From: Chloroflexota bacterium
GTDB lineage: Bacteria; Chloroflexota; UBA11872; VXOZ01
Assembly: GCA_965220045.1 (NCBI GenBank)
Contig: OZ244803.1
Coordinates: forward strand, 1,136,196 to 1,200,195
Length of the DNA stretch: 64,000 bases
Direction: 5' to 3'
A model generated the notes under the pieces. It was not told the origin of the DNA and did not search any database. It was given only the letters and a program-made list of their open reading frames with translations. The position numbers were made by a program, and so were the translations under genes. Shown piece by piece: positions 916 through 62,957 of the stretch (position 1 is the stretch's first letter; each line of letters starts with the position of its first letter).

Positions 916-2370
916 TCACGCTTCTTCCGGCCAGTCGAGCATCTGCACGGTGACCTCGCTGCCGGGCTCGACATAATCTGTGTGCTCCGAGATGATGGCG
1001 AGGCCGTTGGCTTTGGCGAGGGACGTGAGAAGCTGCGACCCCTGCTCGCCGGTGAGCCGCGCGGTGTAGCCGTGGTCGTCGCGCTCCACGACCACGCGCA
1101 CGAACTGGCGCCGGCCGTGGTTTTCCATGCCGTCGAGGAAGCGCGCCGTGATGGTGGTCTTGTGCAGGTGGGTGTGCCCCTGCATGACGAGGAGCGCGGG
1201 GCGGACGAATTCCTCAAAGGTGACATAAGCGGAGACCGGATTGCCGGGCAGGCCGACGACGGGGACGCGGCGGGTTGGTTCAGCGGATGAAAGATGGATT
1301 CCCGCTTTCGCGGGAATGACGGGATCAGGTCCCCCCGCGAGGTTGGACCCCTCACCCTGGCCCTCTCCCCGGGGAGAGGGAATGCTCCCCGCTTGCGCGG
1401 GAATGAGGGATGAGTCCGCGTCCGCTCTGGTAGAATCCGCACTTACTGTTCCCTCGATATGACCGAAAGCCAGCGGCTTGCCGGGGCGCATGCGGATGCG
1501 CCAGAAGTCGATTGCGCCTTCCGCGCCCAGCACGTTACGCACCAGGTCGTAGTCGCCCATGGAAACCCCGCCGATGGTTACGATCAGGTCGCAGTCGTGG
1601 CAGGAGAGCAGGGCTTGACGAATCTCGTCCACGGTGTCGCCGACCACGGGCAGGCGGCGCGGGACTCCGCCATAGACGGTTACCAGCGCTTCCAGAGCAT
1701 GGGCCGCGCTGTTGCGCACCTGACCGGGCAGCAGCGGCTCCGCGATGTCGACCACCTCGTCGCCGGTGGGGATCACCGCCACCACGGGCCGGCGGTAGAC
1801 CGTCACTTCGGTCTTGCCCAGGGACGCCATCACGCCGATCTCGGCTGCGCGAATCCGCTTGCCCTGAGCGAGCACCGTTTCGCCGGTCTTGATGTCCTCA
1901 GCGCGAAAGCGCACGTTGTCCTGGTATTCCGGGGCAAGCAGGATGCCGACGGTGGCAGGATCGCCGCTCGCGCCGGGCGGGGTGCCGAACTTCGCCCAGT
2001 CGGTGCGGTCCGTATCCTCGAACGGCACCACGGCGTCGCTGCCCGGCGGCACCGGCGCGCCGGTCATGATGCGCACGGCTTCGCCGGGTCCCAGCGGCGC
2101 GTCCGGCACTGCTCCCGCAGCCAGGTCGCCGACGACGCGCAAGTGCACCGGCTGCCCCTCACTCGCCGTCTGCGTATCGGCAAAGCGCACGGCATAGCCG
2201 TCCATGGCCGAGTTGTCGAACGCGGGCACGTCTTCCGCGCTGACTACGTCCTCCGCGAGCACGCGGCCGAGGGTTTCCATGAGTGGCACTGTCTCCGCCT
2301 CAAGCACGGAGAACTGCGAGACAATGCGCGCAAACGCTTCCTCGACGCTGAGCATACGGTCTTCCGGCAT
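916..2370 (-). CDS. moeA: Molybdopterin molybdenumtransferase MoeA (gephyrin-like) with a 60-aa in-frame insertion
   Basis: SAMDGYA, IMTGAPVP, TGDE, GGVSMGDYD, RPGKP, GLPGNPVS motifs. Confidence 0.95.
   Translation of the reverse strand: MPEDRMLSVEEAFARIVSQFSVLEAETVPLMETLGRVLAEDVVSAEDVPAFDNSAMDGYAVRFADTQTASEGQPVHLRVVGDLAAGAVPDAPLGPGEAVRIMTGAPVPPGSDAVVPFEDTDRTDWAKFGTPPGASGDPATVGILLAPEYQDNVRFRAEDIKTGETVLAQGKRIRAAEIGVMASLGKTEVTVYRRPVVAVIPTGDEVVDIAEPLLPGQVRNSAAHALEALVTVYGGVPRRLPVVGDTVDEIRQALLSCHDCDLIVTIGGVSMGDYDLVRNVLGAEGAIDFWRIRMRPGKPLAFGHIEGTVSADSTRADADSSLIPAQAGSIPSPRGEGQGEGSNLAGGPDPVIPAKAGIHLSSAEPTRRVPVVGLPGNPVSAYVTFEEFVRPALLVMQGHTHLHKTTITARFLDGMENHGRRQFVRVVVERDDHGYTARLTGEQGSQLLTSLAKANGLAIISEHTDYVEPGSEVTVQMLDWPEEA
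1296..1406. repeat. Cluster of REP-like palindromes inside moeA (two ATTCCC-N8-GGGAAT-type units flanking a CCCTCTCCCC/GGGGAGAGGG unit)
   Basis: ggATTCCCgctttcgcGGGAATgacgg (1296-1322); ccctctccccggggagaggg (1361-1380); ccccgcttgcgcgggaatga (1387-1406). Confidence 0.85.
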
Positions 2371-6113: not shown

Positions 6114-6184
6114 CCTCATTCCGGCGAAAGCTGGAATCGATTTTCTCCGCGTGCTCTGGACTCCGGCTTCCGCCGGCGTGACGG
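6114..6184. repeat. Inverted pair of CGTC-type REP-like palindromes
   Basis: cctcattccggcgaaagctggaatc … ggactccggcttccgccggcgtgacgg; same family as the units inside moeA. Confidence 0.75.
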
Positions 6185-32283: not shown

Positions 32284-32356
32284 CCGTCATGCCCGCGCAA
32301 GCGGGAATCTACCCCTTTTGCGCGCGCCCTGATTTTGGCTCTCGCCGCGATGACGG
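32284..32356. repeat. Inverted pair of CGTC-type REP-like palindromes between the fem genes
   Basis: ccgtcatgcccgcgcaagcgggaatct … degenerate …gcgatgacgg. Confidence 0.7.
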
Positions 32357-62931: not shown

Positions 62932-62957
62932 GCCCCCTCTCCCCGAGGAGAGGGGGC
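62932..62957. repeat. CCCTCTCC/GGAGAGGG hairpin (same family as the central unit in moeA; possible terminator)
   Basis: GCCCCCTCTCC-ccga-GGAGAGGGGGC, 11-bp stem. Confidence 0.6.

Follow-up and report, generated by a model that had tools for sequence, protein, structure and literature searches.

Hairpin repeats of two families occupy a length-variable, in-frame loop of the molybdopterin molybdenumtransferase MoeA in a Chloroflexota genus

In this work we focused on the moeA gene carried by a 64,000-nucleotide stretch of a Chloroflexota genome (contig OZ244803.1, positions 1,136,196 to 1,200,195, hereafter the window). It encodes a molybdopterin molybdenumtransferase, MoeA, with 60 additional in-frame codons composed largely of short hairpin-forming repeats, here called repeat A and repeat B, which are both dispersed throughout the genome. 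The reading that we put forward, with considerable confidence, is that selfish hairpin repeats are translated within a tolerant loop of a working enzyme, and that the site of insertion is a hot spot. The genome studied here (G000) is a single contig (C1) of 3,377,992 bp with 60% G+C; its Chloroflexota affiliation, proposed in an initial annotation of the window made from sequence alone, agrees with the source names of close homologues. The features of the gene are the following, the repeat copies being given with their translations.

916-2370, minus strand: moeA coding sequence (CDS), molybdopterin molybdenumtransferase, 484 amino acids (open reading frame (ORF), Pfam and PDB matches)
1267-1446, minus strand: 60-codon in-frame insert, residues 309-368, in the beta-hairpin turn before the GLPGNP motif, domain III (homologue alignment and AlphaFold2 (AF2) model)
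1290-1322, minus strand: perfect copy of repeat A (NTS/SRM, a CGTC-tagged repetitive extragenic palindrome (REP)), read PVIPAKAGIH (exact 30-mer consensus)
1348-1381, minus strand: copy of repeat B, read PSPRGEGQGEG (10-bp perfect palindrome at 1361-1380 and tag CCCTCACCC at 1349-1357)
1380-1409, minus strand: decayed second copy of repeat A, read SLIPAQAGSI (5 mismatches in 30)

The initial annotation had described 60 extra residues at 1267-1446, and the comparison with homologues confirmed them. The 180 nt of the insert correspond exactly to residues 309-368. MoeA has 65 residues at the site where gephyrin has 8 (the query aligned up to residue 305 and resumed at 371), and 68 where the 25 nearest insert-free homologues have 7 to 14 (e.g. 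HIEGTPI). When the insert was compared with the genome by blastn-short, approximately 224 matches covered 1290-1322 and 32 to 37 covered 1348-1381, the remaining 85 nt or so being unique. The first of these segments is the perfect copy of repeat A, which has a stem of 8 bp and the loop GAAA, and whose NTS-sense strand is the coding strand of moeA. It contains the only match of ATTCCC-N8-GGGAAT in the window, at 1298-1317 (0 of 100 shuffles), and the CGTC tag noticed from the letters adjoins this palindrome on the coding strand. The copy previously called degenerate is found in the same orientation and the same frame as the perfect one. The second palindrome pointed out earlier, CCCTCTCCCCGGGGAGAGGG, 20 nt in length, is exact within the repeat B copy and recurs elsewhere in the window with one mismatch; two matches were obtained in none of 100 shuffles.

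In the AF2 model, based on a 66-sequence alignment and with a mean predicted local distance difference test score (pLDDT) of 80.2, residues 309-364 have a pLDDT below 50 and no secondary structure, and lie between the strands at residues 300-307 and 367-374. The insert is thus mapped to the turn between these two strands, where it is predicted to form a disordered surface loop in a tolerant beta-hairpin.

The remainder of the protein appears as a regular MoeA. The Pfam domains MoeA_N (2.7e-51), MoCF_biosynth (4.4e-28) and MoeA_C (7.8e-17) follow each other in the order expected for this enzyme, and a PDB search gave the gephyrin E domain and Escherichia coli MoeA as the best solved relatives. 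Outside the loop the gene is under strong purifying selection, with a median ratio of nonsynonymous to synonymous substitutions (dN/dS) of 0.095 and a maximum of 0.14 over 411 codons and 105 species pairs (median dN 0.059, median dS 0.65). It is extremely unlikely that the insertion, despite bringing 60 residues close to the conserved GLPGNP motif, has turned moeA into a pseudogene: the low dN/dS, the frame kept open in all 15 full-length genes of the genus and in 40 protein clusters (see below), the presence of a single moeA match in the genome, and the co-occurrence of MoaC and four molybdopterin-oxidoreductase matches all argue against inactivation. The earlier proposal of a composite of two repeat families, retained in a surface loop of an intact enzyme, is therefore supported by the genome-wide copies of both families, the modelled loop, the open frames and the dN/dS ratio. 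As a separate observation, one of the molybdopterin-oxidoreductase matches (G000:C1:1567657-1568925) contains a single in-frame TGA in a 741-aa frame and may be a selenocysteine enzyme such as formate dehydrogenase.

The loop was then compared across the genus, represented by G000 and 16 other genomes. Fourteen of these 16 contain a full-length moeA, which gives 15 genes; G014, in which moeA is cut by a contig end, and G010 (96% complete), in which no moeA match was found, were left out. The reading frame is open through the loop in 15 of 15 genes. Measured from PGKPLAFG to P[VI]VGLPGNP, the loops comprise 30, 37, 57, 61, 66, 66, 73, 73, 82, 114, 123, 126, 140, 146 and 163 aa, and those of the 40 protein clusters sharing 75-96% identity comprise 26 to 156 aa, versus 7 to 14 aa in 25 distant homologues (43-58% identity, BLASTP). 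This difference indicates that the origin of the insert lies in, or close to, the genus ancestor. Sister species on a tree of the flanking codons also diverge in loop length (30 versus 66, 66 versus 140, and 37 versus 126-146 aa). Four types of units make up the loop mosaics, namely full repeat A (VIPAKAGIH), 27-nt partial units in tandem (SVIPAKASG), repeat B (PSPxGEGQGEG), often within an A'-B unit that is itself duplicated, and SPG/TPG runs. The site is a genus-wide, length-variable hot spot that carries a different mosaic in each species.

Some of these mosaics have features of their own. In G003 and G004 (loci L003 and L005), four to five tandem 27-nt units stand ahead of one complete copy of repeat A. 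The 27-nt units consist of the tag, the left arm and the loop of repeat A and are devoid of the right arm; such tandems suggest slippage or cut-and-repair at the hairpin. A subfamily of repeat A with the compensated stem TTCCGGC..GCCGGAA, read AGIQ, provides the first copy in the moeA loops of G001, G007, G008 and G013. In one of the protein clusters (P0039), about 45 loop residues are read in another open frame of the repeat (PSFPRKRE...), the normal frame being regained at IHPSS, the result of either a compensated frameshift within the insert or a sequencing error.

Both repeat families are abundant in G000. Repeat A has 285 copies at no more than 5 substitutions, 96 of them exact, split 143/142 between the strands. 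Its consensus, TCCGTCATTCCCGCGAAAGCGGGAATCCATCTTCTC, has CGTC at one end, a stem of 8 bp and a loop of 4 nt, mostly GAAA, and falls among the CGTC-tagged REPs as characterized in a 2013 survey (PMC3733652) by a terminal CGTC, a stem of 8-9 bp and a loop of 4-5 nt. Read in the NTS sense, it is free of stop codons in all three frames. The MoeA copy matches the SRM search sequence HGTCWYN(0-2)YYVSBRHN(0-5)WNVSBRGN(0-2)RNCYNB at 1294-1321 on the minus strand, a pattern that has 269 matches in the genome versus 24, 28 and 35 in three Markov-1 simulated genomes. With the Neisseria NTS, defined as CGTCATTCCCGCGMAVGCGGGAATCYRG with oriented non-palindromic flanks and described as the longer oriented form that underlies roughly one in two dRS3 repeats (Chenal et al. 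2025, PMC11893778), it agrees at 27 of 28 positions, the last base being different. In the genome as a whole, 112 copies deviate from this NTS by at most one mismatch, two of them being exact. The dRS3 and CGTC-REP identities given in the initial annotation thus hold by the NTS definition and by the equation of CGTC-1 with dRS3 in the 2013 survey. The exact 30-mer was found in at least 117 genome stretches (loci L021-L137) from at least 10 phyla or classes. Among the matches listed are Gammaproteobacteria, Alphaproteobacteria, Acidobacteriota, Gemmatimonadota, Binatia, Nitrospirales, Planctomycetota, Bacteroidota, Ignavibacteria and many Chloroflexota/Dehalococcoidia, and also Dyella and Sphingobium.

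Repeat B is a 9-10-bp hairpin (CCCTCTCCC, loop, GGGAGAGGG) with the CCCTCACCC tag, present in 166 copies in G000. An Rfam scan of the window yielded no family at its gathering score. Below that level, repeat B (hairpin CUCUCC..GGAGAG with AGGGUGAGG) matched whalefall-1 (RF01762) at 19.9-29.2 bits, the gathering score being 37, in 5 of 10 canonical copies tested (L173, L177, L180, L181 and L182) as well as in that of MoeA (1348-1382). A 24-nt inner segment of the model is left unmatched, and whalefall-1 may be a relative of the dispersed repeat B.

Copies of both families had also been reported between genes of the window, and these were recovered. They are listed here together with a candidate nuclease gene located elsewhere in the genome.

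6114-6150 (approximately): variant of repeat A, intergenic, an SRM with the stem CCGG/CTGG instead of CCGC/GCGG
32284-32313, plus strand: copy of repeat A, intergenic, 3 mismatches
62935-62954: hairpin of repeat B, intergenic, 1 mismatch to the MoeA palindrome
G000:C1:2712086-2712373, minus strand: ssn-like, single-domain GIY-YIG ORF, 95 aa (Pfam GIY-YIG, 63.3 bits)

The GIY-YIG ORF is flanked by repeat A on both sides. One copy, at 2712056-2712085 (minus strand), abuts its stop codon, and the other, at 2712502-2712531 (plus strand), lies 129 nt upstream of its start in the opposite orientation. This is the NTS-ssnA-NTS layout of PMC11893778, in which the enzyme has about 94 aa, and in which SsnA binds the hairpin as single-stranded DNA (ssDNA) and cuts a few nucleotides upstream. 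Membership of the Ssn family is defined by CDD cd10448 or by a BLAST match to N. meningitidis SsnA at E < 1e-10. The ORF of G000 has weak NCBIfam matches and a weak PDB match to UPF0213 (E = 3e-4). The enzyme associated with repeat A is a putative small GIY-YIG nuclease of the Ssn type and not the REP-associated tyrosine transposase (RAYT) that the initial annotation had suggested looking for: the 1.5 kb around each of the four Y1_Tnp matches in the genome is free of repeats A and B, and a RAYT link was rejected for both families. A second small GIY-YIG match (G000:C1:240093-240305, L143; 59 bits) contains one in-frame TAA and could be the decayed remnant of a second ssn-like gene; within the 1.6 kb searched around it (239400-241000), no repeat A at up to 5 mismatches was found.

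MoeA is not the only protein of this genome with an in-frame repeat A. The host scan, based on long ORFs with a high G+C content at third codon positions, yielded 10 ORFs, three without and seven with Pfam families, one of the seven being possibly two genes. The count of at least seven host proteins, including MoeA, is a lower bound drawn from the ORFs with Pfam support. It is not based on a codon-usage classifier for genic copies among the 285, which had a sensitivity of 33% at the chosen threshold and called none. The other hosts are UvrA, a 3HCDH/ECH (FadB-like) protein, a HerA-like DUF87 ATPase, an APH kinase, a DUF2298 protein and a Methyltransf_28 protein. UvrA (G000:C1:13643-17419, L146/L156) has 1244-1259 aa and contains two in-frame inserts built from repeats. 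The first, of about 200 aa with seven copies of repeat A in alternating orientation, is located between the UvrA_inter and UvrA_DNA-bind domains; the second, near residue 850, is a repeat region rich in SGRT/VPA and has the appearance of a third repeat family. UvrA matches were present in 17 of 17 genomes of the genus and contained stop codons in none, the frames measuring 1063-1494 aa in the 16 genomes where the gene is complete (the G014 copy is cut by a contig end). The scan for VIPAxAGI and PSPxGEG peptides suggested in the initial annotation did retrieve MoeA, which is the only credible host of these two frames among the ORFs of this genome; in the other host proteins, the prevailing frame is the hydrophilic RHSRESGNP (10 sites in 6 ORFs). 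In a further case (G000:C1:890274-892514, L149), two alpha/beta-hydrolase paralogues occupy one 747-aa frame and are joined via repeat A (FRHSRESGNPG), which could have arisen by repeat-mediated gene fusion or could be two genes that no stop codon separates.

Within the moeA loop, one copy of repeat A is preserved almost to the letter. The copy nearest the C-terminal side has 0-1 mismatch to the consensus 30-mer in 13 of the 15 species, invariably with the NTS sense on the coding strand and read in the frame VIPAKAGIH, and it is decayed in G006 and G011. Among the 13 species, 28 of 30 columns of the core are invariant, compared with 0 of 30 upstream and 8 of 33 downstream; one variable core column is a loop base, which gives GAAA or GCAA. 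In the rest of moeA of the same species, identical codons are used at only 77 of 321 invariant residues, and 46 of 200 four-fold sites are identical. As synonymous sites have diverged to the extent given above, protein coding alone does not account for the preservation of the core. The candidates that we infer are selection acting on the hairpin as DNA and conversion from other genomic copies. The GCAA variant occurs in non-sister species, which fits recurrent change or conversion.

This pattern raises the question of whether the hairpin in moeA, and those in uvrA, are functional DNA elements under selection, the peptide being a by-product. They could serve as Ssn binding or cutting sites on ssDNA that limit recombination or transformation at housekeeping genes, or as a landing pad that attracts further copies. 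The invariance of the core amid diverged flanks and synonymous sites speaks for such a function, as does the survival of one perfect copy in 13 of the 15 species while the upstream copies decay; in Neisseria, moreover, NTS-gene-NTS layouts lower transformation via SsnA (PMC11893778). We nevertheless regard a functional DNA element as rather unlikely, because the perfect copy has been lost in G006 and G011 with MoeA remaining intact, because conversion from some 285 genomic copies could give the same pattern without any function, because the GCAA variant is shared by non-sister species, which fits conversion or recurrent change, and because the orientation of the repeats shows no replichore bias (143 NTS-sense copies leading versus 142 lagging, with origin and terminus placed by cumulative GC skew). 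It is similarly doubtful that the moeA hairpin and the uvrA arrays are active or selected Ssn target sites in essential genes and the loop a living landing pad. If they were, the 27-nt partial units, the species-specific loops and the invariant core would be the footprints of ongoing Ssn-linked cutting, repair or copying, and this genus of mostly complete genomes would offer a natural time series for the movement and function of SRMs outside Neisseria.

We consider it most likely that the peptide itself is neutral baggage. Domestication of the loop as protein, in which the repeat peptide would give MoeA a new interaction or regulation, could be advocated on the grounds that the VIPAKAGIH frame is constant in all 13 species that keep the copy and that the insert has been retained through the whole history of the genus. 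We hold this to be quite improbable, since the loop varies from 30 to 163 aa with a composition that differs between sister species, is predicted to be disordered, and is in part read in another frame in cluster P0039. Moreover, synonymous positions are conserved as well, an indication of constraint on DNA rather than protein, and the same repeat is read in other frames in unrelated proteins.

Read data were available from three runs of two studies that contain most of the window. Short-read contigs break at the repeat core, where the summed depth reaches thousands, and this breakage is the one observation that would favour an assembly artefact. Mismatch-free contigs of the second study enter the insert from the flanking CDS on both sides (X2, 1296-2079; X3, 900-1318), and the same A'-B-A layout is found in a 96%-identical protein encoded on another contig (P0001) and in G012. 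Taken together, these junctions and relatives exclude the assembly chimera that the initial annotation had named as a possible refutation. A removal of the insert after transcription or translation, as for an intron or an intein, is contradicted by the Pfam search, which gave the three MoeA domains and no Hint/intein domain, and by the ends and the length of the insert, which vary between species, unlike those of self-splicing elements. We therefore attach next to no weight to either artefact or removal. X2 further contains a joint from 1260 to 1464 with 20 other letters; its side comprises 22 letters at 90% likeness, too weak to use, and it might come from a relative with a short loop.

Several observations weigh against our reading of translated selfish repeats in a working enzyme. 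With the short-read contigs interrupted at the repeat core, no single one of them bridges the whole insert. From the RNA run (X20), only a piece at 917-1141 with 14 mismatches and some repeat fragments were obtained, so that translation of the loop is something we infer; the neutrality of the peptide is likewise our assumption. That 13 of the 15 species have a perfect copy is not readily reconciled with full neutrality of the insert, and part of the element may be functional. An empty site and a target duplication, both of which had been expected among relatives, did not emerge within the genus: all 15 genes carry the insert, and no target-site duplication, flanking direct repeat or insertion footprint could be defined in them. 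Finally, the nuclease is a candidate for the Ssn family (CDD cd10448) with weak NCBIfam matches.

On balance, the most probable course of events would begin with the entry of hairpin-forming selfish repeats into the beta-hairpin turn of domain III in an ancestor of this Chloroflexota genus. Because the NTS-sense repeat is free of stop codons in three frames and the turn tolerates additional residues, the insert would have been translated as a disordered loop and the enzyme would have remained functional. The site would later have gained full copies, 27-nt partial units, repeat B and repeats of the SPG/TPG type, and lost some of them, always with the frame kept; such repeated in-frame gain and loss would lead to a different loop of 30-163 aa in every species. 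The core of the last copy would meanwhile have been kept by selection on the DNA hairpin or by conversion from genomic copies.

One loop can act as a hot spot throughout a genus, with a different repeat mosaic in each species. The perfect copy persisting amid a synonymous divergence of about 0.65 per site bears on the question of whether such repeats are functional DNA elements or are homogenized by a copying process, and the case offers concrete substrates for testing the local nuclease. For annotation, it follows that such inserts are real and should not be taken for frameshifts or chimeras.

That hairpin repeats of a selfish nature can be coding is already known. The 2013 survey (PMC3733652, BMC Genomics) sorted palindromic repeats into GTAG- and CGTC-tagged REPs, found CGTC repeats in five phyla and without a dedicated transposase, and described CGTC and GTAG REPs contained in full within ORFs of known proteins, replication and repair genes, uvrA among them, being frequent hosts. 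The intragenic clusters encode 43-82 aa, and their authors place the inserts in flexible linkers or loops. Repeat A resembles these REPs in its CGTC tag, 8-bp stem and 4-nt loop, in its hundreds of dispersed copies, some intragenic, and in having uvrA as a host. It differs in the size of the inserts, which reach 163 aa in the MoeA loops and about 200 aa in UvrA, and what we describe goes beyond the accessible text of the survey in the genus-wide length variation at one site and the conservation of the core at the DNA level; a moeA host was not seen in its main text. A literature search returned no moeA or Chloroflexota host of in-frame dRS3, Ssn or REP sequences, although the host-listing supplements of PMC3733652 and PMC11893778 may contain such cases, and searches for the peptides IPAKAGI, SRFRGND, IPAFAGMT, HSRESGNP and FPRKRES returned no papers. 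Compared with the texts consulted, the moeA host, the genus-wide hot spot in Chloroflexota, the size of the inserts, the chaining of two families with partial units and the letter-perfect core are apparently new.

The partner enzyme was supplied by Chenal et al. (2025, Nat Commun, PMC11893778), namely the GIY-YIG ssDNA nuclease SsnA. Our repeat is like the NTS/SRM-SsnA system in its match to the SRM, in 27 of 28 NTS positions and in the 95-aa GIY-YIG gene flanked by repeats, and it shares with the SRMs of that paper a wide phylogenetic spread, the exact 30-mer occurring in many phyla. The Neisseria nuclease was assayed, whereas ours is known from its gene, and cleavage by it is putative. REP/RAYT systems (REPINs) likewise comprise short dispersed hairpins with a tetranucleotide tag and a small enzyme gene flanked by repeats, but the flanked gene is here a GIY-YIG nuclease, and none of the four Y1_Tnp genes is near the repeats.

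The closest parallel in proteins is given by the Rickettsia palindromic elements (RPEs), palindromic repeats found in frame in unrelated housekeeping proteins at positions compatible with the fold (Ogata et al. 2000, 2002; cited from the available text of PMC10969869 and PMC3733652). The RPE-like route proposed in the initial annotation stands in so far as the insertion in MoeA is in frame, in a functional protein and at a structurally tolerant site; it is less new than supposed, given the intragenic CGTC and GTAG REPs described in 2013. Repeat A is not a member of the RPE-1 families. RPE-1 elements measure about 100-150 bp and occur in an obligate intracellular alphaproteobacterium, whereas the units here have 30-36 nt and occur singly or linked to a second family; their host genome, a Chloroflexota one of 3.4 Mb, is free-standing, and the insertion site differs from species to species throughout. 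RPE-4 and RPE-6 of R. conorii are themselves CGTC REPs (PMC3733652), which implies a shared ancestry with repeat A besides the analogy. Ssn-linked hairpins would thus do in free-living Chloroflexota what RPEs do in Rickettsia, that is, form fast-changing and presumably translated loops in the core enzymes MoeA and UvrA.

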